A DNA stretch of 64,000 nt from Chiloscyllium plagiosum (Eukaryota), in NCBI RefSeq assembly GCF_004010195.1, contig NC_057724.1, positions 8,038,671-8,102,670 of the forward strand. The letters are read 5' to 3'. The number at the start of each line of letters is the position of its first letter. Position 1 is the first letter of the stretch. Shown here piece after piece: positions 1,290-63,452 of the stretch. The notes under the pieces are model-generated. The model was not told the DNA's origin, made no database searches, and saw nothing but the letters and a program-made list of their open reading frames with translations. The position numbers were made by a program, and so were the translations under genes.

Positions 1290-1653
1290 CTACACAACAA
1301 GAAAGCAGCGAGACACCATCACTCGCTCTGTCCTGTCTTCAGGGCAGCTTGTTTATTGTTGAAGTTCATCTTGTACAGGGTGGCACTGATGAACAGGTTA
1401 AAGCAGAGGAGGGAGTGCTCCGGATTTCAAACAGGATAAGGAAATTGATCCCTGTCACCAACTGATCGGTCTTTCTCTCCCATTCTGGAAACAAGGGTTT
1501 GTCCATCCCAGCACAAATCGGAAACATGAGTTTTTCCTGGAATCAGCTCTTCTTGGGCGATGAAGGTAACGTGGAATTTGAAACACAAACAGATCAATCA
1601 TGACCGTATTGATGGTGGAGTAGGCTTGAGGGGCCGAATGGTCTATTTCTGCT
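1290..1653 (-). pseudogene. Orphan copy of the 3' end of SLC6A14-like intron 11 (relic D)
   Basis: Aligns by eye with 16668-17030 and 59538-59709; similarity stops at the acceptor AG and exon 12 is absent. Confidence 0.75.
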
Positions 1654-4472
1654 AAGGACTTGTAAAATATACAAGTGACGAGTTCATAACAAACCTTAAA
1701 TATAGAAACATGTGAACTACAGCAAAAATAGGCTAATTTTCTCTAATCTTATTACAAATCACTTGTTAGGGATACGATTAATACTGATAGAAACCAATGA
1801 AAGGTAAAGAGTGGGGTGTTTCCAATGTAAAGAGCAGGGATATAAGTGTTATTAATTAATAACTTATAAAATACAACATTGAGTTAAATGCAATAGAGAT
1901 GGCCACTTAGGCGATGTGTTGCAGCTGTAGCATGTGGGTGCTGCTTGTCTCCTAAAGAAATCCAGTTATATTGGATCAGCTTAAACACTTGATATAATAC
2001 CACACATGAGGCTCCTTAATAAGCTGAGAGCCCATTGTACTGGGTGTACAGTATGACCATGGATAGTGGATTGATGAGCTGATAGAAGACCGACAGCAAT
2101 ATCTTGTAGGGATTTGGGTGATGTGGGTTTGGCAAAGTTTATTCCTGAATTGGATGAGAACTCTAGCAAGGGTCATCCTGATGTCGGGAGAATCATGGGT
2201 TACCTTTTTATTCTTTTAGTAAGCAGTGAGCTGAGTCTGTCACTCGGCAGGGATGAGTTCCTAATTAATGGGATTATTGCCTGTTAAGCAGCTTGCTAAT
2301 GGCACTACACGCCTAATTAATATTCAGCTTCCTATCATAAGCAAACTCACCAAACAAGCTCAACATTGAGAAAACTTGACCTGGAGATTAGAGTGGGGAC
2401 GTAGTGAATTCAGCTTGTTACTTGCTCCAAATGACCTAAATATTAGGCACTGAGGTCTGAGAGATCACTCCAAGGACACCAGCCACATACACTTCATGTT
2501 CATGGGTATTGGATCTGATATGTACCAGCCCCTAAGACCCTGCTGAGCCTTCTCAGAACATTTCTACACTTCAATACTGCACCACAGTCTGCCCCATTAA
2601 CTATCATTGTAATACTGCAGCCAGTACACTCAGGGATATGAACCCAGCTCATGGCATGGCTCAGGCTGCATCTCCGGGCTAGTCACTTGCTGTCCCAGTG
2701 CTCACTCATTCTGAGCAGGCCTGGATGCTCACATCTCTCCTTGCCTTGCCTTTGTGTGTTTGCTACCTCACCCAGGGATATTATTCCAGTCTCTCCTTGC
2801 CATTTAGTGAGACACAAAGGAAGGAATTTTGTTGTGGTTGTCAGCAGGACTCTATCAAATCAAGGCGGGTATACATTACTCAGTGGGTGCTGGCACAGTA
2901 AGTCATGGGCAGTCTCTGATATCAATCCCATGGGCTTAGACATGGACAACCAGTTGCTCAGGGTGGTCAACATCAGGATTTTCTCCACGTAAGGGGTTAG
3001 GAACTGAATGTAGGTCAGCCCACCACCTGGCTTGAGTCTTTCTGCTCTATTGTGGGCTGCTTACTTCCTGGAATAAGGAAGTGGAGTGTTGACAGACTGA
3101 ATAATAGGTCTCTGCAGGTGATCAAGAGTGTCAGATGGTGTGAGTAAAGTGTCAACAGCTGAATAGCAGGTGAAGGGATGACCTATAATCTGATTCATTA
3201 AGGAAGAGAGACAATTACAAAACATTAAAATAAGGCGGTTCTGGAGACAAATCAAATGACTGGAATAACATGGTAGGTATAGGAGTCACACGCCGAGAGT
3301 CTAACCAAAGTAACAAGTACTAATCCAATACTGTAGAAACTAAATAAGGCAGAGAGATCATAAGTTATCAAGGTGATGGTGTTAAAACTGGACAGTAAGG
3401 AAGATACAAAACAGTGTAATGGGGTCACATGTAGTGCGACATGAAACCAAGATCATGGTTGAGGCCATCTTCATGGCTACAGAACATGCATCATACCAAA
3501 AGACAAACAAATTGATTATCATCTTCTGAAACCATCCAGTACAGCCCAAGGGCTGGTTGCAACAATAGGAGAGATCTGTGATCAGTAAGAGAAAATTGGG
3601 ACCTGTACCGTCATGATTTAGAGCCCCTGATTCCAAAGTGTGTCAGTGTGTGTATCCGTTTTGCAGATTGTTATGACATGGAGACAGACAGCCTATCCCT
3701 GTATTCACAACACAGTAAAATTAAAATAGTGACTCTCAAAATTGACCCCAATGGTTCCTAACGTGACCTTTTATATAATCATTATCTGACTTTGTGAAGA
3801 ATTGATACCAAACACCAAGTTTATAGCTTAAACAACAGAATTAACAATTGGTTTATTACAATATCTTTAACACCGCAATATTAAACAGCAAGTAATCTAA
3901 TTGATGTCTATGAATTTAACCCAATCTTCTTTGTTCCAGCCCCCACACAAACAAACTAACACAATTAAAGGGATAAATTGAAAGAAACATAAAAGAGAAG
4001 TAACTAGCTAATTCACTCACACAAACTCACTGATTTGTGACATCACACATATGGGATTGTAAGTTGCTTGGTTTCAAAAGACACCAGTTCATGCAAATAG
4101 CTTCCAATAGGCTTCAAGGATTATTTGTTTAATTCTTATAGCAGAAATTCTATTCACTGAGCTTTTAATAAATTGGTTATGGAAGGAATAACCAGAGAAC
4201 ATTCAAACCTCTGTCCTGTAGCTTTGGAAGCCACGATGTTCTGACAAAAACAGAGTGAAAAACCAATTCAAATTTTGCTTTCTCTTTCTGTTTCTTTGTA
4301 TCATTCCCATGTTTACACTATTTGGTACCAATTAATATCCAAATATCTGCCATCTGACAAAGCCTCTCCAGAGTTGAAATACCTGTAGATTTCTTAGAAC
4401 AAGAATTAATTTCCAGGCCTGGCCTCAAAATCACTCAACACCAGGCTATAGTCCAACAGGTTTATTTGGAAG

Positions 4473-4507
4473 CACTAGCTTTCGAAGCACTGCCTCTTCA
4501 TCAGGTG
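4473..4507 (-). ncRNA. Minimal type I hammerhead ribozyme motif
   Basis: Reverse complement reads cac-CUGAUGA-a-gaggca-g-ugcuuc-GAAA-gc-UA-gug. Confidence 0.55.
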
Positions 4508-4848: not shown

Positions 4849-4883
4849 CACCTGATGAAGGAGTGTCGCTCCGAAAGCTCGTG
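4849..4883 (+). ncRNA. Minimal type I hammerhead ribozyme motif
   Basis: cac-CUGAUGA-a-ggagug-u-cgcucc-GAAA-gc-UC-gug: conserved core boxes, stem II, 3-bp stem I and palindromic AGCU in stem III. Confidence 0.6.
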
Positions 4884-6297: not shown

Positions 6298-6371
6298 TTT
6301 CTGTGAATGTTGAACACATCTGATAAATATTGCATTTTCTAAAATTTAAATTTGAACTTTTAAAAAAAAAT

Positions 6372-7554: not shown

Positions 7555-8935
7555 GAGAGTAAGACCATAACTCATAGGATCAGAAATTAGGCCATTCAGC
7601 CCATTGAATCTGCTCTGCCATTCAATCATGGCTGATAAGCTTCTCAACCCCATTCATCTGCTTTCTCCCCTTGATCCATGATCCCCTTGATACTGAAGAA
7701 CCTATCCATCTCAGTCTCAAATATACGCAATGGCATGGACTCCACAGCCTTCTGTGGCAGTGAATTCCATGGATTTACCACTCTCTGGCTGATGTAGTTT
7801 CTACTTATACCAGTTCTAAGAAGTCTTCCCGTAAATCGAAGGTTGTGCTCTGGGCTCCTAGTCTCAATGGAAAAATCTTCCCAACATCTACTCTTTCCAG
7901 CCCCTTCAGTATTCTGTCAGTTCAATTAGATTCCCCCTCATTCCTCTAAATTCCATTGCGTATAGACCCAGAGTCCTCAAATGGTCCTCATATGTTAAGC
8001 TTTTCATTCCGCGGACTATTCTCGTTAACCTCCTCTGAACACGTTCCAGGGCCAGAACATCCTTCCTGAGGTGTGAGGCCCAAAACTGCACACAATACTC
8101 CAAATGTGGTCTGACTAGAGCCTTATACAGCCTCAAAAATGCATCCCTGCTCTTATATATTAAAGCCCTCTCAAAATAAATGCTATCATTGCATTTGCCT
8201 TCCTAAATACTGACTCAACCTGCAAGTTTAACTTGAGAGAATCCTGGACTAGAACTCCCAAATCTCTTTTGCACTTCAAACTTATGAATTTTCTCCTCAT
8301 TTAGAAAATAGTCCATGCCCCTATTCTTCTGACCAAAGCTCACGACCTCACACTTTCCCACATTGTACTCCGTCTGCCAGTTCATTGCCCACTCTCCTAA
8401 CCTGTCCATATCCTTCTGCAGCCTTCCTGCCTCCTCAATGCTACCCTGACTCTACAGAAGACCGAAACTGTGTGCGCCTTCTGGTCATTCCTGGGTGGCA
8501 CGGTGGCACAGTGGTTAACATTGCTGCCTCACAGCGCCAGAGACCTGGGTTCAATTCCCGACTCAGGCGACTGACTGTGTGGAGTTTGCATGTTCTCCCC
8601 GTGTCTGCGTGGGTTTCCTCCGGATGATCCGGTCTCCTCCCACAGTCCAAAGATTTGCAGGTCAGCTGAATTGGCCATGCTAAATTACCCGTAGTGTTAG
8701 GTAAGGGGTAAATGTAGGGGTATGGGTGGTTTGCGCTTTGGCGGGTCGCTGTGTACTTATTGGGCCGAAGGAACTGTTTCCACACTGTAATGTAATGCAA
8801 TCTAATCCCTCTACCTATCTTTGTATTGTCTGAAAACCTAGCCAGAATGACCTCAGTTCCTTCATCTAGATCATGAATGTACAAACATCCATTGGCTGTC
8901 CTTGATCTAACCTGCTCATTACTTCTTCAAAGAAT
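7555..8935 (-). mobile_element. Decayed CR1 LINE interrupted by a V-SINE
   Basis: ORF fragments [36 protein letters not shown] and FFEEVMSRLDQG. Confidence 0.88.
8493..8807 (+). mobile_element. HE1-type V-SINE
   Basis: tRNA-like head GGTGGCACAGTGGTT...GGTTCAATTCC, V-domain TGTGTGGAGTTTGCATGTTCTCCCCGTGTCTGCGTGGGTTTCCTCCGG, CR1-like tail. Confidence 0.88.
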
Positions 8936-8947
8936 TTTATCCACCAA

Positions 8948-11177: not shown

Positions 11178-11315
11178 TCACTTCTCAGGAATAACCAGAA
11201 GGTGCACAGAGTTTGGGTCTTCTGTAGAGTCCAGCTGCTTCCTGTATCTTTCCCCTCTGTGTTGTTTCAAGTACGGACCCCAATCAGGAGCTGATGTGCA
11301 AGCAGCAGATATTTT
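11178..11315 (-). CDS. SLC6A14: Copy A terminal exon 14
   Basis: [45 protein letters not shown], then TGA at 11178-11180. Confidence 0.9.
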   Translation of the reverse strand, partial: KISAACTSAPDWGPYLKQHRGERYRKQLDSTEDPNSVHLLVIPEK

Positions 11316-14135
11316 CTGTGAATGGAAAAGTAAAATGTTTAATAATTTCTGCTGGATGTTCACCCACTGTTAGCTGGAAAAGAAATCCAGTTTCCAATCC
11401 AATTTTTCTGCAGTTTGATCCAACACCTGGTGATTCATGTTATACTGAATAATGTTTAACATGTACGTTCACAAAGAGTATACACACATCCATACACTGT
11501 AATTGATTGTGTTATACACTGGCAGTGAGGCAGACTGAAGGAAATTGGGCATTGCATTGAAATTATCCCTGGTGAAATGACATTATTGCAATGCATTAAA
11601 TGTAAAAGGTCAGAGACAGTGTGAGATGAAGAGGTTTAGGAATGGAATTCCAACACTTAGCGTCAAGCCTGCTAAATACACAGACACCAATGGAGGAGTG
11701 ACAGAGGCAGCTCTCACCTTTTCCCACCCTCACTGCCCTCCCCTTACCATAAAGGCCCACAATTGCAGGGAGGATTAACTGAGGCTCTAGGCTTTGCCCA
11801 CACCTTATAATATTGCAGACTAGACACAAGCAGGTGGGAGAGCAGTGGGACAGCAGCTGAAGGGAGGTCATGGGCCCTCCTGCTGTAAAGCTGCTCCTGC
11901 TGGACTGTAGGAATCTGCTGTTTGTAACAACCTCAAAGAGCAATCTCTTAACTATTGTATTAGGGCTTTCGTACCCTGGGGGCACCCTTGTAATAATGTC
12001 ACAGAGCAGATCTTCATTGGGAAGAGATACCATAGTGTGAGTTGAATTAAGAAAGACAGAAATTCTGAGTGAATGAGGCAGAGCCCCAAAATCTAACATT
12101 GTTTACATTAGAAACACTTGCAGAGGAGCCCATGGAGTAGACTGACTAGCAATGGCATAGGGATCACAGAATAGTTTATCAATAGTCCTCTGGAACCTGT
12201 ATATTGCAGAGAAAAGGTACATTTTATCAAAACTTTTGTCTTGCATTCTTCAGAACATTTTGCAAGAATCCCAAATAATTCAAGGTGAGAAACAAAATTT
12301 ATGCGACATGAATGGTTGCTAAATTGAACTCCAATTGGCAGAGACGATGATATGAGGAATACTCCCAGTAATGCTGATTAGCAGTTAACTGCCAGGTTTT
12401 GATTAAAGGATTTGAAACTTTTCTTCATGGAGAGGAGAAGGCTCAGAGGAGATTTGATTGATGTTTTCAAAATCATAGGAGGTCTGGAATTCATTGACAA
12501 CGTTAAATAAAAAAAGTGAGATTGATCTTGAAAAACCTGTACTAAAATCAGGAAATGTTTTATCTGGATGTTACTAGAAAACTATTGAATCCCATCTCCC
12601 ATTGCTGCCACCTATTGTCACAGTCAGATAAATGTAAAGATCTGCAATGCAGAAGACATCATTCTGAATCTGAGAGCTAGATTTTGTAACAGTCCAAACT
12701 CCGACTGTGTAAGATACTTAAATAGTATATTAGATTAGATTAGATTACATTACAGTGTGGAAACAGGCTCTTCGGCCCAACAAGTCCCACCCGGAGGAAA
12801 CCCACGCAGACACGGGGAGAATGTGCAAACTCCACACAGTCAGTCGCCTGAGGCGGGAATTGAACCCGGATCTCTGGCGCTGCGAGGCAGCAGTGCTAAC
12901 CACTGTGCCACCGTGAATTGCTTGAGAATTTAATGCGCTCAAACTGACAAACTATGATCCATGAACTGTGACACAAATTACAGAACATAGTGGACCTTTC
13001 ATTTCACATTTGCTAAATTAAGAATACCTGCAATTTGCAAGATATTGTAATTATTTGCAAGCTGACATCTTCATATTTGTGCAATTATTTTAAAACAAAA
13101 AACAAAGAAAATTACAGCACAGGAACAGAGTCTTCGGCCCTCCAAGCCTGCGTTGATCCAGATCTTCTATCTAAACCTGTTGCCTATTTTCTAAGGATCT
13201 GTATCACTCTGCTCCCTGTCCATTCATGTATCTGTCTCTGTACATCTGAAATGATGCTATCATGCCCACATCTACCACCTCCGCTGGCAACGTGTTCCAC
13301 GCGCCCATCACCCTCTGCATAAAGAACTTTCCACACATATCTTTCTTAAACTTTTCCCCCTCAGCTTGAACTCGTGACCCCTAGTAATTGAGTCGAACAC
13401 TGTGAGAAAAAAGCTTCTTGTTATCCACCCTGTCAGTACCTCATGATTTTGTAGACCTCAATCAGGTCCCCCCCACCTCCACCTATCTAAAGAAAATAAT
13501 CCTAATCTACTCACCTCTCTTCATAGCTAGCACCTTCCAAAGCAGGCAACATCCTGATGAACGTCCTCTGTACCGTCTCCAAAGCATCCACATCCTTTTG
13601 ATAATGTGGCGACCTTAACTGTACACAGCATTTCAAATGTGGTCGAACCAAAGTTGTACAGGGGAACCTCGATTATCCGAACGTGATGGGTGAGCACTAT
13701 TTCGTTTGTATAATAGATTACTCGGTTAATCGATTAAATGCCTTTCCTCTGGGGGTTTGGAGTTAAAATCTTCCGTTCGGGAGACTGCAGCAGCACACAG
13801 CACGCGAGGCCCCCGCCCCTTACCCTGTTCAACACCGGCTCCCCCACAACTCCATGCAACACCGACCCCGCCTCCAGCACCGTCCAACACCTCCTCCCCA
13901 CCCGGAACCCCATCGAACACTACTGCCCACCCTAACCCTGTACAACACCAACCCCCACCCCAAGCCACATGCAACACTGCCCCCTGTCTCCAACCCCTTC
14001 CAAAACCGCCCCCCAACACCGCCCCCTGCCCACCCCAAATGCCATACACACCCACCCCCACGGGGCAGCTGGACTGGACACCAACAAGACTGCTGCTGCT
14101 GCAACTGCCTTTGTGGGGTAAGTCTCCAAATAGCT

Positions 14136-14166
<31 letters not shown>

Positions 14167-17100
14167 CTTTTTACTGCAACTAGTGGACAGGTTCCACCTT
14201 TACCCTGTACAGGACACTGTTGGAGAGATTATGTGGGGAAGGGGGTGTTCAGGGTACACCCCTGTGTAGAACTCCAGGGAAAGTATGGGGAGAGAGGGTG
14301 GGAGGCAGTCATTTGGAGATTGTGCCTGTTTAATTACTGTAAACAAAAGATGCGATCTCTGTTGGAAACACATCTTTGATGTAATGTTTCCATCAGGACC
14401 TCGAGATCTCCTTCAGATAATCTGACTTTCGGATAATTAGTATTCGGATAATCGAGGTTCCTCTGTATATAACTGTAACATGACCTGCCAAAATGCATCA
14501 TCTCACATTTGCCCAGATTGAACTCCATCTGCCATTTCTCTGCTGAACTCTCCAATCTATCTATATTCAGCTGCATTGTCTGACAGTCCCCTTCACTATC
14601 TACTCCTCCATTAATCTTAGTGCCATCTGCAAACTTGCTAATCAGGCCACCTATACCTTCCTCCAGATCATTTATGTATATCACAAACAACAGTGGTCCC
14701 AGCATGGATCCCTGTGGAACACCACTGGTCACAGTTCACCATTTTGAGAAACTACATTCCACTACTACTCTCTGTCTCCTGTTGCTCAGCCAGTTCTCTA
14801 TCAATCTAGCTAGTACACCCTGGACCCCATGCGACTTCACTTTTCCAATCAGCTTTACCATGGGGAATCCTATCAAACGCCTTACTGAAGTCTATGTATG
14901 TGACATCCACAGCACTTCCCTCATCAATCAACTTTGTCAGTTCCTCAAAGAATTCTATTAAGTTGGGACCTTCCCTGCACAAAACCATGCTGCCTATCAC
15001 ACATATGCTGATTTTTTTTTCAAATGGGAATAGATCATATCCCTCAGTATCTGCTCCAGCAGCTTCCCTACCACTGACATCAGGCTCATCAGTCTATAAT
15101 TACCTGAATTATCCCTGCTACCATTCTTAAACAAGGGGATAACATTAGCAATTCTGCAGTTTTCCAGGACCTCACCATGTTCAAGTATGCTGTAAAGATA
15201 TCTGTTAATGCCCTAGCTATTTTCTGTCTCGCTTCCCTCAGTAACCTGGGATAGATCTTATCTGGATTTGGGGACTTGTCCACCTTAATGCCTTTTAGAA
15301 TATCCAACACTTCCTCCCTCCTTATGCTGAACTTGACCTAGAGTAATCAAACATCTACCCCTAACCTCAAAGTCTGCCGTGTCCCTCTCCTCAATGAATA
15401 CCGACACAGAGTACTCATTAAGAATCTCACCCACTTTCTCTAACTCCACACATAACTTCCCTCCTTTGTCCTTCAGTGGGCCAACCCTTTCTCTAGTTAC
15501 CTTCTTGCTCCTTTTTCCGAATAAAAAGCCTTGGGATTGTCCTTAAATATTTGCTAAAGATATTCCATGACCCCTTTTAGCCCGCTTAACTAAAACCATT
15601 GTTTTAATTGTGTAAATGTTATAAGTTACACTTTTTTTGTAACACTGAAGTCTCCATAGTCCTATCAGACCATAGGGCTGCTCTCTCATTAGAGAGTGAG
15701 GTGACTGGTGGTGGTTTACCCTGAGGGTCACCATGCCTCAGACAAGGGGAGAGTTCCTGGAGGAGAGTTCTTCATGGTAACCTCAGCTGGAACGGGAATT
15801 GGCATCACTCAGCATCACCAACTCACCATCCAACCAACTGAGCTAACTGACCCACCTTGTTTTAGTTGTTTAATTAACACAATTCATATGTTTTGTGATG
15901 AACCCTTGGTACTTTCAGGTAAAGAGCCTTTGTAATTTTACTATTTTTCTTCACTCTGACCCTAACTGCTGTACATTCTTATGTTATATGTTCTGTCTCT
16001 CACTGTCACACTCTGCAGTTATCCTTACCTGATCCTTACACAGTGCAATAACACTGTGAATTATACCTCAGTGACGTCTTTGCGCACACAACCTCCAATG
16101 TACACCCATTACTCCAGCTTCAATCCCTAACCAAGATGGTATTCACAGTGAACTAAACTGAGCATGAGTGTAAGTAGAACAAAAGGATATCTTGACTTTG
16201 AAAGGATAAGCTGTGTGTTGAATCAATTGGAACTCCAAAGCCTAATTTTATGTTCTCTGTTCCTTAATCTTTAAAAGATTTCAAAACTGTCCCTCACCTG
16301 CCACAAGGTGGGGCCCTCAGCTTGGACAACTCTCACCATGGCCACAATGGGGATCCACATAATACAGAAGATGGTCATACACCAGCCCAGTGCTCCTGAC
16401 CAGACAGGGTATTCAACAGGTCCATATGTTGGAGGGGTGAGTGTTGCTAAGGACCAGATTAAGACTGCCTGAATGAAATGATACAAAACTAGATCAGAAA
16501 TAGAATGAGATTGACTATTTTCAGTTTAAATCATAATAATGTGAAACAGCTCCTTACCACCAGCAAACATGGAGAGATCAGAATCCAACAGATTCTCCAC
16601 CACAGCCAGAAGAGCCAATTCCTTTCCCCAATCATCATCTCAATGTCCTTGATGAATCTGTTTATCCCTATACACAACAAGGAAGCAGAGAGACACCATC
16701 ACTCGCTCTGTCCTGTCTTCAGGGCAGCTTGTTTACTATCGAAGTTCATCTTGTACTGGGTGGCCCACTAATGAACAGGTTTAAGCAGAAAAGGAGTCAC
16801 TTGGCATTTTAAGGATAAGGAAATTGAACCCTGTCACCAAATGATCAATCTTTCCCTCCCATTTTAGGAACAAGGGTCTGTCCATCCCAGCACAAATTGG
16901 AAACATGAGTTTTCCTGGAATGAGCTCTTTTGGGTGAAGAAGGTAATGTGGAATTTGAAACTCAAACAGATCAGTCATGACCGTATTGATAGTGGAGCAG
17001 GCTTGAGGGGCCGAATGGCCTATTTCTGCTGTTGCTCACATGTTTCTGTATTTAGGATTTGTTACAAACATTTCAGTTTCATATTTTACAAGTCCTTAGA

Positions 17101-20100
17101 GATGTTGATAGATCATGACATCATGGTAGAGGAAGCTGTTCAAGTTGGGAGAGGAAATGTGATTAACCTCAAGACTACTGCCTGTATCACTGACAAACAC
17201 ACTGGATAAATAAAACATTGGAGTTAAATGTGTGGCTCAGATTGGTGTGGGAGGTATAGGGTTCAGTTCATGGGACACTAGGATAGTACTGTGGTCAAAG
17301 GAAAGTGTACCATTGGGGTGGACATGCCTCAGTTGAACCACACTTGGGGTGGGGAAAGTGAATCATAGAGCTGTACAGCATGGAAACAGACCCTTCAGTC
17401 CAACCCGTCCATGCCAACCAGATATCCTAAATTAATCTAGTCCCATTTGTCAGCAGTTTGCACATATCCCTCAAATCAATTCCTATTTATATACCATCCA
17501 GATATCTTTCAAAATGTTACGATGTCGAAATGCAGGTGTTGGACTGGGTGGGCAAAATTAAAAATCACACAACACCAGGTCTGTTGGACTATAACTTGAT
17601 GTTGTGTGATTTTTAACTTTTAAAATGTTGTAATTGTACCAGCCTCCATCACTTCCTCTGGCAGCTTATTCCACACATGCACCACCCTCTGCAAGAAAAA
17701 GTAGCCCTTTAGGTCCCTTTTAAATCTTTCCCCCTCACCTTAAATCTATGCCCTCTAGTTTTGGACTCCGCTAGTCCAGGGAAAAGGCCATAGCTAAACA
17801 CCCTATCCGTGCTCTTCATGGTTTTATAACCTTCTATAAGGTTACCCCTCAGCCTCTAATGCTCGATGGAAAATAGCCTCAGCTTATTTAGCCTCTCCCC
17901 AAAGCTCAAACCCTCCAACCCTGGCAACATCCTTGTACATCTTTTCTGAAACATTTCAAGTTGCACAACATCCTTCCCATAGCAGGGACACCAAAACTGA
18001 ACACAGTATTCCAAAAGTGGCCTAACCGATGTCCTGTAAACTGCATTTAACAAAGAAGAGCACTTGAATTCTCGTCACCTTCTGATATAAAGAGCTATCT
18101 ACACCACGTCCAGCAGCTGATTCATTTGGTCTGATTTTATTAAAGAAACTACAAAGTGCTGTAATTTAATTGATTTTGTTTCAGTATTTTTCAAGATTCA
18201 CTGACCATAGATCCAGCTGAGACCGATGAGTTGCAGGAGAGCTGTTATAAAGAGAATCCAGTCTGTAGCGTAATGATCGATAAAATTTAACCAGTAAATC
18301 CCAGCCTAAAATTACATGGAAAATTCAAAAATATTACACAGGAAAATTATTAAGTACTCTTACTTTCAAATTCAGACTTTAAAGAGATTTGTAATATGAA
18401 GACCTATGGGTAAAAAAACATAATTCTAATTGAAGCAAAATCTTGCATATGATGGAAATCTGAAACAACCACAGAAAATATTGGAAAAACTTTCCAAGTC
18501 TGGCAGCACCTGTGCAGAGAGAAACTGAGTTACTGTTCCGAGTCTGGTATGACCCATTGTCAGAAATGTTCCAACACAATTCTAACTTGATGCTCAATAT
18601 TCGCTCATTCATTTATGTCTGGGCATCTATTACATTGCTGTTCTCTCTTCTATATTGATAACTGAATGTGATTTTCAAAAATGAGCCAGCAGAATTTACC
18701 TGCACTGTTCTAACTGTGATCTCACGTGGGTCAAATACTTTCTAGATTTAAACATGATCACCCTTTCTGTACATCTTAACCCTCTGTCTCCAGATTTAAC
18801 TGCCTGGGAACATTGGGGGGTATTTCCACAAATCCCATGAAAACAATGATTTCTCTCAGTATCCCAAAGTTCAGCAATATAACTTTGAGATCCACTACAA
18901 ACTAGGCAGGAGAATAGTTTCTTCAGACACAATGAGAGGTGTACCAAAGCCAAATTAGACCATGAATGTTTTGCTAAAGTGACAAAACATTACATTAGAA
19001 AATATCGTCAATATCAATATGATGAGTATTGGACAACGGAACTGCCAACACTTCAATAAAACAAATAACTGATGAAATTTTGGAAAATTATTATCGAAGT
19101 CTGGCTTGATGTGAATACAAGAGTTGCCAGATACACTTCAAGGGTTTTAGCCATACAGAGATGAAATTGACGTTTCTTAAGAGGCATGACTTTCAAAGAT
19201 AAACAGATGCTTATAGCTGAAGCTCTTTACCAAGCTATATTGCCACATTATACCAGGGGCATATGGGCATAGAGTGAAAAAAGGCATCTGAACAGCTCAC
19301 TCTGTAATGGTCATGGATCAACAGGAACACTGAGATGTCAGTGAGAATGTGTCAAAGTCACCCACCATATCAACAGAAAGAACCTCTCTACCCTTATAAG
19401 ATTGCATTGTAGCCTTGGCTGCAGTTTGTAACATTTATTTCCCATCACTGGTGACAATTTTCACAAAGTGACTGACTAATTTTCCAACCATCAGACATTG
19501 GAATGATAACTCAACTATACCCATAGCAGTTACCACGTATACAAAGCGTATTCCATTCAGTGATAACAAATGTGTTTGCTGAGAAATCTTATAACATAAT
19601 AAGCAGAATTGTGGTCCTGTTTCCCAGTCCTAGTGTGAGATTGGAATGTCTGAGAGCGAACTCAGAATCACAGCAACATGTCAATATGACAAGATCACTG
19701 CACAACATTAAACAGCTGCAAAAGGAAAGGACCAGAGCACAAGCTCTTGCTGTATTACTTCATCCCATGAATTTGATCAACTTTTAAGAGTTACTGAGTA
19801 CATGTGATAGCAGCTTAAATCACTGTTAAACAACCTACCTGTGTCACATATAGAAGGCCAAGCAGATAAAATAACGAACAAATGCCAGCTGTCAGAAGAA
19901 GGCGCTTTGATCGGAGCAATGTAGGGAACTGGTCCTGCAGGGCTGTCATAACTGTTTCTGATGAAGAAAATGTCAAATGAAGTGATTAATTAATAACTTG
20001 CACAATGACAGGACAAAACATCACTGGACACACCAAAGCCCTGGGAGTTTGGAGTAAAAGGTTTCTGCATCCATTTCTCTAGCCCTGAGTCATGTATTTT

Positions 20101-41192: not shown

Positions 41193-41675
41193 GCATTTCA
41201 GTAACAAAAACAGTCCAAGCTATTATATTTTTCAAAAGGAAATTAGGTAAAGAAGTGAAAAGGAACAATGAAAAAAAATTCATGAGAACCCAAAGAAAGT
41301 TCAATTTGGATAGTTAAAAGCTGTTTATAAAGCAACAGTGGAACAGCTAACTGAGGTGGACTTAATGATGTCCTCCTGCAATTTGTATAAACTTTATTGT
41401 TTTGGTAGATATATTGAAAATTGAAGCAGTTCAACTAATTTTTGCAATAAATTTTCAGGAATAGAATAAACAGATTTTTCTGTAAGCTTTTCCAAATTTT
41501 GGGTGATTTCCTTTGAACTTTCATGTAACTTTTGGCTCATTTAAAGCAGCCCCATTCTGCACTAATCCAATGAGCAGAGAATGGACATTTGTCCAATTAT
41601 TCGCCAAGTGTAGTTTATAAGCTTCTATTGTAATTCCAACCCACAAAGAGAATGATTTAAAAATGACATTCTTAC

Positions 41676-41794
41676 CTAAAGGGGCAAACAGATTGCCAAT
41701 GTGAACAGCATGAGGAAAAATAAAATGGACCATAAAGGTGCCCACAGCAACTGTGCAGCAATCTCAGGATACACAATGAAAGCCAAACCAAAGC
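41676..41794 (-). pseudogene. Frameshifted SLC6A14-like exon 9 (copy B)
   Basis: [35 protein letters not shown], then a 7-nt deletion relative to copy C (119 vs 126 nt) giving an in-frame TAG. Splice sites are still intact. Confidence 0.88.
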
Positions 41795-43252
41795 CTGAAT
41801 TATGGAAACATGTGATATGGTAAAACTAACTGTGCTGTAAGGAGAGGATAAATGTCCCTCTATTTTAACCAATAATGTACCAGGAAACCACTCCTCAAAA
41901 CAGTCACTATTGTGAAATTTTCCCTTTATGAATCCATCCTGGGTCACCATTAAATAATATTGTCAATTTAATGCCAAATTTATGCTATGGAGACTTTGCC
42001 AACATGTTATCTTTATAGCGTGCAAGTGGCCATAACAGTATTGATACAAAATATTATTTACATTTGTTTTTAAATTTGGGGAGGGTTATAGATGAAACAT
42101 CCATGAAGATGGCTAGTGATAGGACACAAGCCCGACGAATATCTGCAGCTAGGACACAGGCTGGTTCCAAGACTGCCACAACCTGACATGCAAGGCCATC
42201 ATGGAAGCTAGCATTATGGAAACATGTAAAGACTAATAGGTTGGAGAAATGAGCAACCTTTTATTTTCCTGCTGTGTAAAATGTTCTGTCTGTAATGAAG
42301 TTGGTGAGGTACCATGACTATATGCTGGGCAACGTACTGTATAGTATAAAAGTGGAACAATTTCCCTTCAAACTTTATAATGCTCCTGTGAAACTGGTAA
42401 CTCCTATCACCATACTGGGAGCCTAGAGGGCCAGAGCTATCATATTGAGCTTAGGAACTAAATTGCACAAATTGATGTAATTTGAATATCATATCATATT
42501 ATCATTTATCAATATTGTTTTGAACCATTTATGCCTGAAGCATTCAATGGCTATTATTGTTTTACTAACAAATCCTCATTGCAACCTTGACCAAAATAAC
42601 TCAGTTAATCTGAGACCTGCACAATACCCACCTACAAACCATCCCAATCCACGACTCAAAACATTTTGACTCTTAAATTATAACCCCTCAGTCGGACGTT
42701 CACTTAATTGAATTGGCAAAATCTTCTTTGAAGACGTCACAATATTTAATGGAACTCCAAACCTCTTCAGGACCAATCTCCTCTAATTTGTGAAAGTCAG
42801 TTTAGTTTATTCTGCAGTTATAACAATTGGATCCAGACTTTGCCAACAGAATAGAAAGGTTGTAGTTTGGTGAAATAGGAACATGTGAAAAAGGTGCAGG
42901 AATCATCCATTCTGTCCGTGACCCATCTCCACCATTCAACTAGATCAAGCCTGATTTGCCTGTTACCTCAATCCACATTCCTGTGCAACCCTGATAACCC
43001 TTTCACCCATTACTTAACAAGAATCTATTGAACTTGACCTTAGAAAGTATGCAAAGTCAATGTCTCCACCACATATTCATGAAGAGAGTTCCAAAGACTC
43101 TCAATCCTCTGTCAGAGCGAAAAAAAAACACATGTTTTAAATGGGCAAACCTTATTTCTAAGACACAGTTCTAATTTCTTCCATGAAGACCTATCGGGAT
43201 CTTAAATATGTCAGTCCAGCAGATACAACACTAGCCTGTCCAATTGCTTTCA

Positions 43253-48191: not shown

Positions 48192-48263
48192 CATGTGCTT
48201 TGGAGCATGTGTTTGATGGTAAGTCTGTGAGAACCCAGATAAAGCCAATTCTCTTTTGTCCAT
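48192..48263 (-). CDS. Orphan SLC6A14-like exon 1 (MDKRELALSGFSQTYHQTHAPKHM)
   Basis: 72-nt open frame from ATG to a consensus gtaagt donor; same length and phase as 35973-36044; shares the MDxxELxLSGFSQ pattern. Confidence 0.6.
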
Positions 48264-55028: not shown

Positions 55029-55160
55029 TTAGGGTGTCGCTAGAAGCTGTACCCCATAAGAAGTATCTCTTGAATCAGGCCTTTTCCTGTATCTTTCCCC
55101 TCTGTGTTGTTCCAAGTACGGACCCCAATCAGGGGCTGGTGCACAAGCTGCAGATATCTT
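55029..55160 (-). CDS. SLC6A14: Copy C terminal exon 14
   Basis: [43 protein letters not shown], then TAA at 55029-55031. Confidence 0.9.
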   Translation of the reverse strand, partial: KISAACAPAPDWGPYLEQHRGERYRKRPDSRDTSYGVQLLATP

Positions 55161-58100
55161 CTGTGAAGGAAAAAGCAAAATGTTACATTTCTACCTGATT
55201 TTAACCAGGTACGTAGCCTCTAACTGGGGGAATTGGAAACAAAATCCTGCTTCTTATGAATTAATCCTGATTTTAATGTAATGAGGAAATCACATTTGGA
55301 AGCCCAAGTGGTCCCATTGTTTCAGTGCTGGGCTTTGTCATGATGGTTTAATTCATCCCTGCTCCAGGATTCCTGACCAGTCCCGCAGTCCTAGTGACAG
55401 CTCCTGACTGTTCATGAAACGCTCTGTATTTAAAGGGACCTGAGCAACAGTTGGAATGGCTGTGTCCTAGTTTCCTTAGGAAAGCAGAAGAATGATGACA
55501 TAAAGACATGAGAAAGCTGCTTTCAAACCCCAGCCCCAACCCTCAATCCCACCCCATTCTGACTCATTTCCCAACACTCGAGGTGAAGGGAGGGATTGCT
55601 CCCCATGGAGAGAGCAAGTGGCCAGCTGCCTTGTTGTGGCTGGAGTTTGCAGGAGTAGTGAGCAGCAGTAGGACACTCCTGAGAACATGGAAACAGCCCC
55701 CATGTGGTTTAATCTCCTAGAAAGGACAGGAAAAGTAAATCACAAAGCACCTACAGGTGATAGTCCCACTTTCTGTCTACCCCAGCATTCTCCTGCACAG
55801 CACAGTCAGAACAAATTCCTCTGCATCTCCACTCATCTATCTCTCTTCCAGCCTCGTCTGAACATTGTTACAATGGAGAGGGAAAGTTCATCAAATATTT
55901 AAAATGTAGTTTGTAAAACAATATCTCAACAAACCAGTTGGGAAACAGCTTGCACTTAATCTAAGACTTCGTGATCAGAAGAATTTAACTGTAACATTGT
56001 GGGATGGGAGCTTTAATGGAGGAATGATGGCAGTATCTTGAATTTCTCTATTTCATATTGTCAGCACTTTACTGGAGGACGGGAGTCTTAAATCCAAACA
56101 AATGGAAGACAGGAGTAGATCAAAGGAGCCGTACAAATTGATCTGTTGTTCAGAAGGCTGATAGGCCGAAGGACTCAGAGGATGATAAGTCAGACAATTG
56201 GGAGTAAGAGATTGGTCAGGAAGGTAACCAGCAAGACATATGAAAATGACTGAAGTTTTTCTCTAGATATGACAAACAGGAAATAATTATTGGAATTTAA
56301 TATAGGCACATTACAGACAGAGACGAGTGTTACAATGGAGAAGGAGAAAACAGCAAAGAGCTTAAACAAATATTTTGCACACTATAACACAATAGAAAAT
56401 ATAAGAAAAGCTTCTGGACATGATGAGGAACCAAGGGTTAAACTTTGCCACAAATATATATGTATTTCCATGCTGGGCTAAACTCAGAAACGAAAAAAGG
56501 AGGCAGCTATCCTGCTACTGCTGCTCGCCTTGGTGAGATGTACAGCCATTCAACTTCATGCTTGACTTTGGTGGGTACAGTGTACAGTATGAGAAAACAA
56601 GACCATAGGCACTTCTCCCCAACAGTGAAGGACAATTGTTTCCATACAGCTTAAGGATAGCTACACCACAAACATGACAATAGGTGAGGAGGCAGGATCT
56701 CCATGAACAATCAGAATGGGTACAGATTTGATTGAGCCTGTGCTATTGGTTTCATTCTGTGCCATGCTCTGGTTGTCTAATCAATCTAACTGACGTATTC
56801 CTCCAACCCGAGAAATAAATAACTCATTTAAATTCACAGGCAGTATGAAGGTCTTGTGTTACCTGAATGAAAGCAACAATGTGGGTTGGTCACACCTTGC
56901 TTGTTTTCAGCCCATTACAATATTATCCCGCTCAATTCGCACACATTGACACTATTTAAATAATGGCATGAATACAAAATCAGCAGACAAAAGCATAACA
57001 GATTACCCAGCAAAACAGCATAAATAATTGTTTATTTTCTCAAATTTTCTGCTGACTTGCTGAAGGAGCAGTGTAAATTGGGAGACTGATTCATAAGAAC
57101 AGAAGAACCAGAAATGGATTATTCAGCTCCTGAAGCCTGCTCCATCATTTAATATGATCATGGCTGATCTCATCTCTGTCTCAACTCCACTTTCCTGTGC
57201 TCCCCATCAACTTTAATACTCAATACCTCAGCATCCACCACACACTGAATTCCACAGATTTATGACTCTTTAACAAAAGTAATTTCTCCTCATCTCTGTT
57301 GTAAATCGTCTACTCCTTATCCTGAAACTATGACCCCTCATTAGATTGTCCCACATGAGGAAATATCTCTGTAAACCTCACTGAAATTTATCAACATGTT
57401 TCCTTACCTGCCACAAGGTGGAGCCCTCAGCTTGGACAACTCTCACTATGGCCACAATGGGAATCCACATAATACAGAAGATGGTCATACACCAGCCCAC
57501 TGCTATTGCCCAGACAGGGTATTCAACAGGTCCATATGTTGGTGAGGCAAACGTTGTCAAGGACCAGATCAAGAGAACCTATTTAAAATGATTGCACAAA
57601 ACAAAATCATAAGCACAATGAGATTGATTCTCTCACCTTGATTGTTGAACAATACTGAAAATAAAATGTTATAAAAGTACATAAGAACATACAATCAAAA
57701 ATGGGCCATTCAGCCCAACAGATCAATACCCAGAGAGTGTTTAAGTTCCAAGCAATCTCCCACTGCTTTCTAACTCTATCTGTATAAGCTTTCATCCTTT
57801 CTCTCTCATGTAACAATCTGGCTTCCCTTTAAATATTTGCTATTTGCCTGAACTGCTTCTTGTGTTCGCACATTCCACGTTCTATTTGTTCCTTGATTAA
57901 AGAGTTTTCGCCTGAACTTCTTCCTAGCTTTATGAATGACTAACATGTAGTTGTGCCTCCTGTGGGTACACCATACATCCTAAGTTGTCGAAGACTGTAG
58001 AAAATGCAACCAATCCCCAAGATATCACACCCCTTAGGAATGCAGCATTTTGTTTATAAATTCCCCCTAACCTCTTACTACACAGTGCCCTGGTTAACAA

Positions 58101-61100
58101 TTTGGCTATTCAGCAAAAAGTCTTTGTACTTGCTACCTGTGAAGATGGTATAGAGGGACCTTAACTATCCGAATATTAATTATCCGAATTTCGGATGATC
58201 CAAAGAAGATCTCAAGGTCCCAATAGAAACATTACATCAAAGAGGAGTCAGCAACACTGATCGTGTCTTTTGTTTACAATGATTAAAAGTGAATTTGGCT
58301 TACTGAAATGCTGCCGAGAACAGTCCTGGACATTAATGGGAGCCCAGGCACCGTCTCCAACAGACTGACCCTTCCGCCCTCTCTCTCTTCCTACACTTTC
58401 CCTGGAGTTCTACACAGGGGTGTACCCTAAACCACTTCACAGATAATCCCTCCAATATTGTCCTGTACAAGGCAGAGTGGGAACTTGTCAAAAAGCTGTG
58501 TGTGTGGCTGCGTGCGTGTATTGTCTTGATACTCACCCCCCAAAGGCAACTGCAGTCTTGCTGTTGGTGTCCAGTTCAGCTGCCGTCTCCATTCCGGCAG
58601 TTTGCAAGGGGCGGGGCGGGAGTTGCAAAGTGTGCTGCTGCCCATTCTCCTGAATGGGGAGTGGACATAGCAAGTGTTCACTCTGTCAATCCCATTGAAG
58701 TGAAGCAGTGGCGGGGAGAGGCCTCAGCAATGCTGCAGGTCCCTTACACATAAGTGTGTGTCTGCTCAGAAACAAACCCTGAGACAGAAAGAGGGAGAAA
58801 GGCAGGCAAAGCAAGGAAAAAGGAAACTTCAGAAAACTCCGAGTCCCAGAGGAGAGGCATTGGATCAGTTAACCAAATAATCAATTATCTGAATGAAATA
58901 CTGCCCTCCCATTATATTTGGATAATCAAGACTCCTCTGGACAGTGGACTTGTTGGATAGCATTCCTATCGGTGGAAGCTCCTTGACTACCTCCCGTAAC
59001 TTCCCTTTACCGTGCTCAGTAACACATCCCACTCCTTGATTCTCTGCTTTCCTCCGAGTTGTGACGGACTCTGGAGAAAACTGACAATTCCTCCCAATTC
59101 TTTACACAGAAGAGTGTTCATTCTACTGAGGTGGAGAGCCACAGTACAGACATGTTACTAAGATATGGAAATCTAGGAAGCCTTGTTGTCTACGAATTTC
59201 AACCAACTCCACCAATGCTAAAGTTTGCTATTTGCCTGAACTGCTTCTTGTGTTCGCACATTCCACGTTCTATTTGTTCCTTGATTAAAGAGTTTTCGCC
59301 TGAACTTCTTCCTAGCTTTATGAATGACTGACATTTATTTGATATTTTCAAGTTTCAAACTGACATTTATTTGATATTTTAATCAGTTAGTCATAATTTA
59401 CTAAATAGTAATCTAACATCTCCTTACCACCATCAAACATGGAGTGAGAAAAAACCAACAAACTCTCCACCAGAGCCAGAAAAGCCAATTTCTTTCCCCG
59501 ATCATCATCTCAATGTCCTTGATGAATCGGTTTGTCCCTGTGAACAAGGAAGCAGAGAGACACCATCACTCGCTCTGTCCTGTCGTCGGGGCAGCTTGTT
59601 TACTGTTGAAGTTCATCTTGTACAGGGTGTCACTGATGAATAGGTTAAACCAGAGAAGGGATTACTCGGGATTTCAAACCAGGTGAGTAACTTGTTCCCT
59701 GTCACCAACCCAATTATCGTGAAAATACAATGTTTGTATACATCCTGAAGAGGTGTCTCTAAGAAAGGCTCATGTTTCTGATCTGTGCTGAGACGGACAG
59801 ACCCTGTTATCAGAATGGGTGAGCCTCAAAGGGAGTCCGGTGCAGAGATGAAGAAAAGAAAATGGATTTCAGTAGATCACAGGAAATATCACAAATACAA
59901 AAGCTGTTCTGTTCTCCCACCTGCCTTGATGACTGGGAGCTACTGAATGGGTTCTGTTGTAAACAGCAGTTTAACTTAGGATGAACATATTTGAACAGTT
60001 TTCCTATCAGGAACAGACAAAACTGACCCGAACAACAACCAGCTGTAACATAGCAATACGAAGTGTTGAAGTGTGGTCAGTGCAGGAAGCTCTGGAACTA
60101 CTAAAGGACAGATCTTTAATACTTCAAGGAGGGTGCACTTTTAATCCTATTGTTTTCCCATGTGAAGAACTATTTAAATCATATCATTCAATTAATTTGT
60201 CATGTGTCTTCTAAAGAACAATGAAGATCTGTGTGTCAGCAATTTTATCTGAATTATTTTGTATTGTTTCAGTTCTTTCCCAACTTACCATACAGCCAGC
60301 TTACACCCATGAGTTCCAGCAGTGTTATTATAATGGGGACCCATCCAATACAGAAATGATCAATTAAATGTATCCAGTAAATTCCAGCCTGAAATTACAA
60401 TAAGACATGAGCTCTTCAGAAAACACAGCAGGTCTCATACACAAAATAGGTGATTCTTGTGATATAAAAGTTGTGGTGCTTCTATTCAGGTACAATCTGA
60501 GCTTGACTAGGATCTCAGGCTCTGTATTTAGTAACAGCAGAGTCACTCAGTTCCACAGTATCATTGCACATTATCACACAAAGGGTAAAATAACTGCTAC
60601 CAAATCACAGTCTTTCTTTATTTCTAAATAATTTAAGGTTTTTGACTTCCTAGTTATATCTAACAATACATGAAAACTCAGAACAAATTATAAGAGCAAC
60701 TTACCTGGGTTACACTCACAAGGCCAAACAAATAAAACAACATGCAAATGCCAATTGTCAGACAAAAGCGCTTCGATCGCAGATATTTGGGAAACCTGTC
60801 CAGCAGAATGGTTATGACTTTTTCTGGGAAAATGAAAATTGTTATATGCGATTAGTAATTAATTAATAACTTACACAGTCCCACAGAAACCCAACCTGGA
60901 GGTACCAAAGCTCAGAAGATCACATGGGCAGATGGAGTCACATTCCATTTTATCATCAGTCTACTGTCAATTATTGGAGAGATTCTAAGGCTGTCAATCC
61001 TTTACAGCAGTCAAACCTGAATATTATCACAAGCCTCATTTGTGTTAAACATGTTTGCCCCAAAAACAGAGATTTGACAACGTAGGATCTGAGTTCCATG

Positions 61101-63452
61101 ACAAACAATTGAAACCTGGACAAATATGACCTGACTGGGGGAGTGAATATAAATTTCTAATGGGTAAATCATGTCTTACAAAACTGATTTGAACATTTTG
61201 CAAGAATTAACATGATAGATAAAAGAGTACAGATGAACTTCCAGAGACATTTAACTGAATATGCTCAAGATTCCACTCAGAGAAATGTAAGTATATTTCA
61301 GGAGGTATATCTCTGACACACATCAAAAATTGATTAGCAAGAATAACAGATAAGTACTGCAGTTGGTTTGATGTGACTTCATGTTTTCAACAAATATCTG
61401 ACACTGGGTTTTGCATTTTTCACCAATTACTTAAATGAAGAAATGTAAAGCCATGTATTCAAGTTAGCTGACAACATTAACTTATGACATGGAGGTGCTG
61501 GTGCTGGACTAGGGTGGACAAGGTTAAAAATCACAACAGCAGGTTATAGTCCAACAGGTTTATTTGCAAGTACTAACTTTCAGAGCAGGATCCTGCTCCA
61601 CAACTACCTGGTGAAGGAGCAGTGCTCTGAAAGCTAGTACTCCCAATTAAACCTGTTGGACTATAACCTGGTGTTGTGTGATTTTTAACATTTAAATTAG
61701 GTAGCACAGTAGGTTGTGCAGGAAATTAAAAAGAGACATTGTTAGATTAAGTGAGTGAGATAAAGAGGTAGGTTGAGCTCAATATGGCAAATTTCAATCA
61801 TCCCCCTTGGACTGAAGATGTATTTATTACAGTAATCTTTAAATGGTGAGGAAAATAAGAAGTGTGGACAAGAAGGAAGATTCAAGGGTGCAGGCACAAA
61901 ACTCAAAAACGTAACAACCACGTACAACCTATAATCTAAAAGTTTAACAGAATCTTTCATCTCAATGGGTTGACCACAGCTGGAGGTTTGGGTTGAGTTC
62001 TGTATTCTGCCCCTCTGGAAGGTTTATATTAAACTTGAAGGAGGCGAGTGAAACTTCACCAGAATTATATCAGTGAAATAATTAATTGTATTAGAAAATT
62101 TCAAAACTGAGATTGATTGACTTGTGTTAGACAAGGATATTATTACTTTGTTCCTGTACAAGAGTAGTGGAAGATGAGGAGAGCTGGGATAGGATTAAGG
62201 AGAGAACTGAGAGAGATCAATATGGGAATGAGACTGAGTGTGACTACGTGGGATAAATCCTGAGAGGGAGCAGTGAGGAGGTTTCATATCATGGATGGAC
62301 ATCTGAGATCTGTTACATGCTATTCCTACACCTTTTAGGATCTTCAGGACACTACATTTTGTCTTGAGTAATTACATGTGTACAGAATGTCTCCTGCTGC
62401 TCCACTTCAAGCCTAGGATTCCTGGGTCTGTGTGAAAACTGGAGTCACTGTGGATGGTCAGGCAGGATGAGAGGTTTCTGGGTCATACTTTGCAGAAGGT
62501 AATCATCCCACAGGCAGTGAGGGGTCAGTATAAAATTCTGATACCATCTGGAAGAGCAAGAAGACACAGAAATTTAACAATGAATTGGCATTGAATTGGC
62601 ATGGTCCAGTTAAGAAGGCAAAGAGTGAGCCCAAAGGGCCAAAAGTACATTAAAAAAAACTGGGATGTATCCTAAAGATCCAAGCTAATCTTTTAAAGGG
62701 TCTATCTCAAAACTGGGCAGACCACAGGCTACCTCCAATCTGTACCTGGACACAACAGACCTGAATTCAAAATCACACCAATTCTTCCCAGGAGTAAAAA
62801 CAATATAATTCTTGGCACTTCCTATTGAGGTGAGCGTGGCATGATGGGATATTTCCTGAAGAGAGCTATGTATCTTGTTAAAAACAAACTATGCCATTAT
62901 ATGGTCCAAAAGGAAATTGAATAAAAATGGGAAAAGGAAAAATAAGAAAAGATACATGAAAAGCATAAGAAAATTCAATTTGGATAGCTAAAAGCTGTTT
63001 ATAAAGGAACAGTGGAACAGCTATCTGCAGTGAGCTTAGTGACCTCCTACAATTTGTATGAACTTTATTGTTCTGGTAAAAGTTTTGCAATAAATTTTCA
63101 GGTTTACAAAACACAGGAATTATTCTGCGAGTTTTTCTAAATGTTGTGGTGATTTCCTCTGAATTTTAATGTAGCTGTTAGCTCATTTAAAGCAGCCCCA
63201 TTCTCCACTACAATGTTGAGTAGAGAATTGAAACACAAGGCCAAAGAACATTCATCGAGAGTAGTTTATCAACTTCTTCTGTATTTCAAAACCAGAAAGC
63301 GGATGATTAAAAAATGTCGTTCTTACCTAATGCTGTAAACAGAGTGTCGATTGCCAAAGTGACCAGCATGAGGAAAAATAAAACGGACCATAAAGGTGCC
63401 CATGGCAACTGTGCAGCAATCTCCGGATACGCAATGAAAGCCAAACCAAAAC
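55029..63452 (-). CDS. SLC6A14: SLC6A14-like transporter, copy C (exons 9-14; 5' part lies beyond the window)
   Basis: Six in-phase exons; exons 9-13 have the same lengths as in copy A (126/119/100/110/171 nt); no internal stops. Confidence 0.9.
57408..57578 (-). CDS. SLC6A14: Copy C exon 13
   Basis: [57 protein letters not shown]; 171 nt. Confidence 0.92.
57836..59329. repeat. Exact 106-bp direct repeat (57836-57941 and 59224-59329)
   Basis: TTTGCTATTTGCCTGAACTGC...CTTTATGAATGACT, identical in both copies by eye. Confidence 0.92.
58151..58939. mobile_element. Second, more diverged copy of the TA-flanked MITE, in opposite orientation to 13659-14465
   Basis: Degenerate TIRs (TAGAGGGACCTTAACTATCCGAA and TTGGATAATCAAGACTCCTCTG); subterminal sequence is the reverse complement of ~14060-14465. 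Confidence 0.78.
59428..59537 (-). CDS. SLC6A14: Copy C exon 12
   Basis: [37 protein letters not shown]; 110 nt. Confidence 0.92.
60289..60388 (-). CDS. SLC6A14: Copy C exon 11
   Basis: [33 protein letters not shown]; 100 nt; donor gtaagt. Confidence 0.92.
60705..60823 (-). CDS. SLC6A14: Copy C exon 10
   Basis: [40 protein letters not shown]; 119 nt; donor gtaagt. Confidence 0.9.
61487..61690. mobile_element. Palindromic hammerhead-type Penelope-associated mini-element within an old CR1
   Basis: Inverted arms as at 4744-4969; mutated core CUGGUGA...GAAAGCUA at ~61608-61638. Confidence 0.7.
63327..63452 (-). CDS. SLC6A14: Copy C exon 9
   Basis: [42 protein letters not shown]; 126 nt; donor gtaaga. 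Confidence 0.92.

Follow-up and report, generated by a model that had tools for sequence, protein, structure and literature searches.

A stretch of 64,000 nucleotides from the bamboo shark Chiloscyllium plagiosum (RefSeq assembly GCF_004010195.1, contig NC_057724.1, positions 8,038,671 to 8,102,670; the whole stretch is called the window) is a slice of an elasmobranch tandem array of SLC6A14 genes, whose copies are likely to be amino-acid importers with diverged substrate ranges. Mammals have one SLC6A14, which encodes ATB0,+, a transporter of neutral and cationic amino acids with 3Na+:1Cl- coupling. In sharks and rays the gene has multiplied, and the copies have diverged most strongly at the residues that select the substrate; therefore, the paralogs probably carry different small molecules.

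The window contains three gene-derived units, genes A and C and relic B, together with a non-coding scrap, D (Table 1; exons are numbered after the 14-exon mammalian SLC6A14 gene). All SLC6 exons and array units lie on the minus strand, and genes other than the array units were not found in the window. An earlier note on this DNA had proposed at least four same-strand paralogous units, namely a near-complete copy A, an intact 3' half of copy C, and relics B and D. The array, its single strand and the descriptions of A and C hold, while the number of gene-derived units drops to three, D being no gene copy. The visible parts of copy A comprise 12 whole exons and the last 28 nucleotides of exon 8, with AG/GT at all visible junctions, an ATG at 36044, a stop codon ending at 11178 and an open frame with no internal stops in the visible exons. 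A sensitive search of the window failed to recover exon 7 and most of exon 8 from readable sequence; since the 3' end of exon 8, donor included, surfaces at the edge of an assembly gap, the missing parts probably lie inside it. The stored Chiloscyllium protein P0003 is the best match on either side of this gap (93-99% per block), which argues against a mis-join. Overall, copy A is 95% identical to P0003 over 500 columns; its identity to the SLC6A14 proteins of chimaera and gar is 65% and 63%.

Copy C shows an open frame and canonical splice sites in exons 9-14, its 5' half lying outside the window. Genes A and C share 72% protein identity (246 columns) and 74% nucleotide identity in exon 11, the latter matching the earlier figure; because these values are so low, the two are not haplotigs, a mis-assembly that had already been judged unlikely. 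Over exons 9-14, synonymous divergence (dS) between them is 0.45 and the ratio of nonsynonymous to synonymous divergence (dN/dS) is 0.34 overall, which points to past purifying selection on both. Relic B stands as a relic, with a 7-nucleotide deletion in exon 9, and to this exon an orphan exon 1, not mentioned before, is now added.

Family identity was established with proteins gathered by database searches. Exon 13 of copy A returned the best 75 of 81 proteins, all from sharks or rays and nearly all labelled 'B(0+)-like', and two further searches (best 120 each) brought rays, one chimaera protein and ray-finned fishes. From 190 stored proteins, 2 unnamed entries, 1 labelled contaminant and 4 scrambled models were left out, 2 fused teleost models were split, 5 models (4 Hemiscyllium, 1 Ciona) were trimmed, and A and C were added, giving 187 rows, or 161 after near-identical rows within species had been merged. 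Among the matches listed, the closest relatives of A and C are Chiloscyllium proteins. For the ortholog of A, bit scores are 860-994 with six chimaera and ray-finned SLC6A14 proteins, and 662 with GlyT2 (SLC6A5), 563 with PROT and 543 with GlyT1 (SLC6A9). By score and by tree (the trees being without SLC6A5, SLC6A7 and SLC6A9), the array genes belong to the SLC6A14 orthogroup. Membership of SLC6, the neurotransmitter:sodium symporter (NSS) family, is evident from exon 2 of copy A, which matches GlyT2 at E 4e-20, and from P0003, which matches Pfam PF00209 (SNF) at 651 bits. The Na1, Na2, chloride and gate residues visible in A and C are kept, with S423T as in GlyT1 and GlyT2; the sites of A in transmembrane helices (TM) 6-7 fall in the gap.

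The expansion is old and restricted to one lineage. In an IQ-TREE analysis of 41 of the 161 rows, all 28 elasmobranch rows formed one clade (99/99) and the 11 ray-finned rows another (100/97), and the chimaera protein fell in neither. Approximately unbiased (AU) tests on 22 rows rejected a grouping of derived shark copies with ray-finned second copies (p 5e-48), as well as a branching of derived shark copies before the jawed-vertebrate split (p 3e-4). Two clades are made up of shark as well as ray rows, and the derived clade has additional ray rows; thus, duplication started before the shark-ray split, which dates back more than 270 million years, as cited in PMC11979771 (here and below, PMC numbers stand for excerpts of the papers concerned). 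Among the matches listed, 11 of 12 shark species have 5-11 distinct proteins (Carcharodon has 2), and the numbers are 1-4 in rays (10 species), 1 in the chimaera and 1-3 in ray-finned fishes (21 species); these counts are approximate, a copy being a predicted model less than 90% identical to the others and not a verified locus. RefSeq copies within a species appear, by implication, to lie mostly on one chromosome. The earlier proposal of a lineage-specific birth-and-death expansion agrees with the trees, AU tests, copy counts and relic B; its scope changes, in that the expansion is confined to one lineage as proposed, and that lineage is the elasmobranchs as a whole from before the shark-ray split, with nothing special to this genome.

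Birth-and-death evolution of tandem arrays with gene conversion is a general evolutionary model, and the array resembles it in its intact copies, its relic B beside intact genes, its clades shared by sharks and rays, its single-lineage blooms and its possible exon mosaics. It differs in that the diversifying surface is the substrate pocket of a transporter rather than an immune or odorant receptor site.

The pocket of human ATB0,+ consists of Y52, V128, S324, W327 and S427, with backbone contributions from G55-L56-G57 (PMC12655857). Its polar cleft is formed by S125, T129 and S427, selectivity is shaped by V128, W327, S427, S125 and T129, and V128F abolishes lysine and arginine transport (PMC9599917). 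Residue numbers were mapped through a GlyT2 alignment and Table 2 of PMC12655857. Across 129 elasmobranch rows, mean entropy at the seven side-chain sites was 2.18 bits, versus 0.97 in matched columns (the rows being related, the p value is too small to be taken at face value). Parsimony assigned 29.6 changes per site to these seven positions, compared with 15.6 in matched columns (p 3e-4), while ion sites were not raised (3.7 versus 5.0). Within all 16 species compared, paralogs differ at 0.61-0.77 of the seven pocket positions, versus 0.14-0.25 of other columns and 0.06-0.30 of ion and gate positions. Certain pockets have been retained for a long time: the ancestral combination Y52/S125/V128/S324/W327 occurs in 13 of 13 rows of a line containing sharks and rays, and all 10 rows of another line, drawn from sharks, sawfish, skates and an electric ray, share a derived T129D/S324A pocket. 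This divergence, at the level of sequence, supports the earlier suggestion of new transport specificities.

Both window genes depart from the ATB0,+ pocket type (Y52, V128, S324, W327, S427, cleft S125/T129). By homology, copy A keeps Y52 and carries S125I, V128A, T129N and S427G. Copy C shows S427A, and its ortholog P0045 carries Y52S, V128D and W327S. A further difference concerns the TM10 glutamate, which binds a third sodium ion in GlyT2 (PMC12685064) and is also present in ATB0,+ (PMC9564218). Copy C keeps it; copy A has glutamine. The GlyT2 mutation E650M lowers coupling from three to two sodium ions per glycine and nearly eliminates chloride dependence (PMC6166138). Because Gln replaces the Glu that binds the third sodium in GlyT2, weaker and more reversible coupling is predicted for copy A. 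Among the matches listed, Gln occurs at this site in 8 of 127 elasmobranch rows, all from carpet sharks. In exon 11 of copy A (18305-18206), the residue ten places ahead of the TM10 Gln is Asp, which might compensate for the lost charge; Gly occupies this position in 119 of 127 elasmobranch rows.

Compared with SLC6A14 (ATB0,+), then, the array shares the orthogroup, Pfam PF00209 (P0003) and most ion and gate residues. It differs in its many copies, in the variation of Y52, S125, V128, T129, S324, W327 and S427 among shark paralogs, and in the absence of the third-sodium Glu from the line of copy A. GlyT2 is the closest solved structure and provides the residue rules (E648/E650 for the third sodium, S479/S481 for exclusion of sarcosine); however, GlyT2 and GlyT1 are glycine-specific and form their own orthogroups. 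The line of copy A resembles GlyT1 in lacking the TM10 Glu, but has Gln where GlyT1 has Met.

These observations can be combined into a proposed mechanism. As sequence and trees show, the array began to expand in an ancestor that sharks and rays share, and it continues to turn over through duplication, deletion and, probably, gene conversion at exon scale. Because the Na1, Na2, chloride and gate residues are largely conserved, the copies would remain sodium- and chloride-coupled amino-acid importers of LeuT fold. A copy with the ancestral pocket would have been kept in many species while the side-chain pocket of the S1 site was remodelled in others, so that one broad transporter may have given rise to a panel whose members differ in substrate range or affinity. 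Copy A, with smaller residues at V128 and S427 and its third-sodium Glu lost, would probably use two sodium ions per substrate and be less concentrative and more reversible. Copy C, whose ortholog combines W327S with an acidic TM3 residue, may have a large polar pocket that could suit cationic or bulky substrates. Both predictions draw on single-mutant data from relatives. A more elaborate version, tentative and rather improbable, would include in the panel carriers of methylamine and beta-amino-acid osmolytes (the S324A lines), a reversible two-sodium version A in carpet sharks that could let solute out as well as bring it in, and pockets generated by neighbouring copies swapping the exons that encode helices.

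Several points weigh against the proposed diversification of substrates. The seven side-chain sites were self-chosen, the variation having been noticed before the site list was taken from papers, and the excess is weaker for all eight tabled S1 residues (17.8 versus 11.6 changes, p 0.03). S427 is as variable in ray-finned fishes (entropy 2.70 versus 2.74). The half of the copy A pocket that lies in the gap is read from the ortholog, and the coupling data from GlyT2 concern Glu-to-Met, not Gln. The trees hold one chimaera protein and no tetrapod, coelacanth, lungfish, lamprey or SLC6A5/7/9 rows. Finally, the database proteins are predicted models, of which four were dropped as scrambled, and some could be pseudogenes or chimeras.

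Sarcosine and beta-alanine are osmolytes of skate cells, and beta-alanine is transported by ATB0,+. The array could be mainly an osmolyte-uptake kit (sarcosine, betaine, beta-alanine) for urea and methylamine osmoregulation, a special case of the favoured explanation that we consider unlikely. Chimaeras also use urea and methylamines, yet have one copy among the matches listed, and the pocket diversity far exceeds the needs of one osmolyte class. The lead for it is S324, replaced by Ala or Gly in 48 of 125 elasmobranch rows and 19 of 22 species among the matches listed, the same change that makes GlyT2 carry sarcosine (PMC9564218). The osmolyte link of the earlier note keeps this one lead but loses its bearing on the window, as the orthologs of A and C retain S324; Gly is also found there in 5 of 30 ray-finned rows. 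Moreover, slc6a14 is unnamed in the excerpt of a paper on catshark embryonic gut (PMC8923501), and a paper on salinity and the stingray kidney (PMC9396271) does not contain 'slc6'. According to another explanation, which is quite unlikely, the copies reflect a split of dosage or expression under relaxed selection, extra copies serving to raise or redistribute the uptake of amino acids and the pocket changes being drift tolerated by a permissive transporter. The fairly high dN/dS of A and C, the continuing loss evident from relics B and D, and the V128I mutant of human ATB0,+, which changed little besides serine affinity (PMC9599917), would all fit. Against this, the variation gathers at pocket sites with ion sites not raised, and derived pockets have become fixed across sharks and rays, as drift would not be expected to produce.

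Two remaining explanations carry far less weight. The copies could be old paralogs common with bony vertebrates, or members of other SLC6 orthogroups, both of which the earlier note had named as outcomes that would overturn its proposal. Gar and Polypterus do each carry two SLC6A14 genes on a single chromosome, and in two teleost models a pair of copies is fused; for the sampled taxa, which include no sarcopterygians, the tree, the AU tests and the scores given above nonetheless reject this explanation, making it very improbable. An assembly artefact of haplotigs or mis-joins, for which the two N gaps (one within copy A) might speak, is scarcely credible: for A versus C it is ruled out by the dS and by separate orthologs of each in independently assembled genomes.

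By sequence and tree, the ray-finned slc6a14 duplications are independent of the elasmobranch ones and reach only 2-3 copies among the matches listed. Similar to the shark copies, the second copies of gar, bichirs and two acanthomorph models differ most at the pocket (gar 0.57 at pocket positions versus 0.16 elsewhere; Erpetoichthys 0.40 versus 0.11). In P0145, P0076 and P0077, second copies from gar and two teleosts, W327 is replaced by Ser, Thr or Phe. As judged from the alignments, these are parallel pocket changes after independent duplications.

Exon-scale conversion may have contributed to pocket turnover. Exon 4 of copy A, which encodes TM3, is 95-96% like another paralog line (7:2, p 0.006) and is a probable case of gene conversion, while exons 5-6 side with a third line (14:2, p 2e-6); both trios were picked after the data had been seen. 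Such comparisons, chosen post hoc, suggest that conversion can move pocket helices between copies. Between A and C, dS falls from 0.65 in exons 9-11 to 0.29 in exons 12-14 (Fisher p 0.012). Over the 80 nucleotides that precede each exon, the two genes are 89% identical at exon 12, versus 50-68% at the other five. A general homogenisation of exons 12-14 within species was considered and rejected: paralogs of one species exceed pairs from different orders in similarity by a mere 0.01-0.05 across the six blocks, and any conversion is therefore local rather than concerted evolution. Ahead of the exon-12 acceptor, A, C and D share about 160 nucleotides at 83-89% identity (16671-16840, 59543-59709 and 1296-1462), far more than is seen at other intron flanks, either as a conversion tract or as a conserved splicing element. 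No Rfam family reached its gathering score anywhere in the window, on which ground a structured RNA at the end of intron 11 was rejected. Intron 12 measures 89 nucleotides in A (16469-16557) and 1849 in C (57579-59427), where it carries a 118-nucleotide duplication at 97% identity (57836-57953, 59224-59341).

The pocket divergence among elasmobranch paralogs is new here, the genes themselves already carrying the automatic label 'B(0+)-like' in databases. The SLC6A14 expansion in elasmobranchs and the predictions drawn from it also appear undescribed, although the kind of system is familiar. A literature search that did not extend to subscription journals and some supplements found no published account of the expansion or the pocket divergence. 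The main texts of the bamboo shark and catshark genome papers contain no 'slc6', the readable supplements of a whale shark paper name the gene only as an orthogroup member, a single paper linking slc6a14 with elasmobranchs has it as an entry in a table, and the chimaera is the sole shark-side SLC6A14 used in the excerpt of PMC9564218. The array itself is ordinary gene-family evolution; its value lies in what it offers to the study of ATB0,+, a carrier of 18 of the 20 amino acids and of drugs and prodrugs (PMC9599917). The explanation of how the ATB0,+ pocket achieves this breadth rests on few mutants and homology models, and the elasmobranch array supplies more than 100 natural pocket variants built on a common scaffold, some of which were already fixed when sharks and rays parted. 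Since the third-sodium glutamate has been lost naturally in one line, the proposed Na3 site of ATB0,+ can be put to a direct test, and candidate carriers for osmolyte and nutrient uptake in sharks can now be named.

Table 1. Array features in the window (coordinates are window positions; percentages are identities).
Feature	Position	Strand	Remarks
Copy A, SLC6A14-like gene, probably intact	11178..36044	-	splice junctions, frame; 95% to Chiloscyllium P0003
Copy A exons 1-4	36044-35973; 35714-35561; 34758-34627; 34078-33911	-	
Copy A exons 5, 6 and end of 8	29949-29811; 29020-28888; 24735-24708	-	
Copy A exons 9-11	20750-20625; 19957-19839; 18305-18206	-	
Copy A exons 12-14	16667-16558; 16468-16298; 11315-11178	-	
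Copy A exon 4 (TM3; V128A, T129N, S125I by homology)	33911..34078	-	nearer P0012/P0008 line than Hemiscyllium A-type copies
Assembly gap in copy A, 500 N	24737..25236		probably holds exon 7 and most of exon 8 (TM5-TM7, including S324, W327)
Copy A TM10 Gln codon (CAA) at GlyT2 Glu648 position	18231..18233	-	P0003 aligned to GlyT2
Copy C, intact 3' half	55029..63452	-	93% to Chiloscyllium P0045 (246 columns)
Copy C exons 9-11	63452-63327; 60823-60705; 60388-60289	-	
Copy C exons 12-14	59537-59428; 57578-57408; 55160-55029	-	
Relic B, orphan exon 1	48192..48263	-	ATG, phase 0, GT donor intact; C-type, best match P0006 81%
Relic B, exon 9 (41794-41676) and flanking introns	41206..42027	-	7-nucleotide deletion, frameshift; introns 77% to copy C
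Fragment D, about 440 nucleotides, non-coding, 3' end of intron 11	1291..1733	-	A-like; 1652-1733 inverted relative to A
Inverted scrap of copy A exon 14 end, 46 nucleotides	8448..8493	+	91% identical

Exon 9 of relic B is 85% identical to C and 72% to A, and both B exons match C-type proteins best. The orphan exon 1 has the same phase as exon 1 of copy A and could, judging from this phase, provide A with an alternative first exon further upstream. In fragment D, positions 1291-1653 match the 3' end of A's intron 11 at 88% identity, and the last 167 nucleotides match C at 89%. The description of D as a coding relic was rejected: the similarity ends at the exon-12 acceptor, no protein match was found and a six-frame profile scan was empty. 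A weak exon-13-like protein match at 51561-51809 (E 0.006-0.05) lacked a profile match and was taken as chance; in nucleotide comparisons no full exon there rose above shuffled sequence, and only a 28-nucleotide exon-8 stub beat its shuffles. In the Hemiscyllium models P0007 and P0016 the transporter is joined to FERM-domain pieces, which differ between the two models and lie downstream in one and upstream in the other; this suggests that a FERM gene was co-duplicated inside the array of that species. A search for FERM exons in the window found none.

The window as a whole has 41% GC content, is CpG-depleted (observed/expected 0.25) and rich in repeats, and contains a second N gap at 9982-10969. 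Between exon 1 and exon 9 of relic B lies a decayed element resembling a long-terminal-repeat retrotransposon (44300-47400, plus strand), presumably Gypsy, whose integrase core (E 6e-6) and zinc-binding pieces (E 3e-4) do not reach the Pfam cut-offs. Reverse-transcriptase fragments (RVT_1) at 5524-6345 and 14337-14735 on the minus strand, which we take to be CR1-like, are accompanied by many other repeat pieces throughout the window. Three related repeats at 21246-22290, 32182-33030 and 49600-50150 are 64-71% identical and have long open reading frames; the two that were tested had no Pfam match, and we assume a possible Penelope-like resemblance. Local direct duplications occur at 8941-9110/9409-9578 (92% identity) and 45082-45323 (87%).

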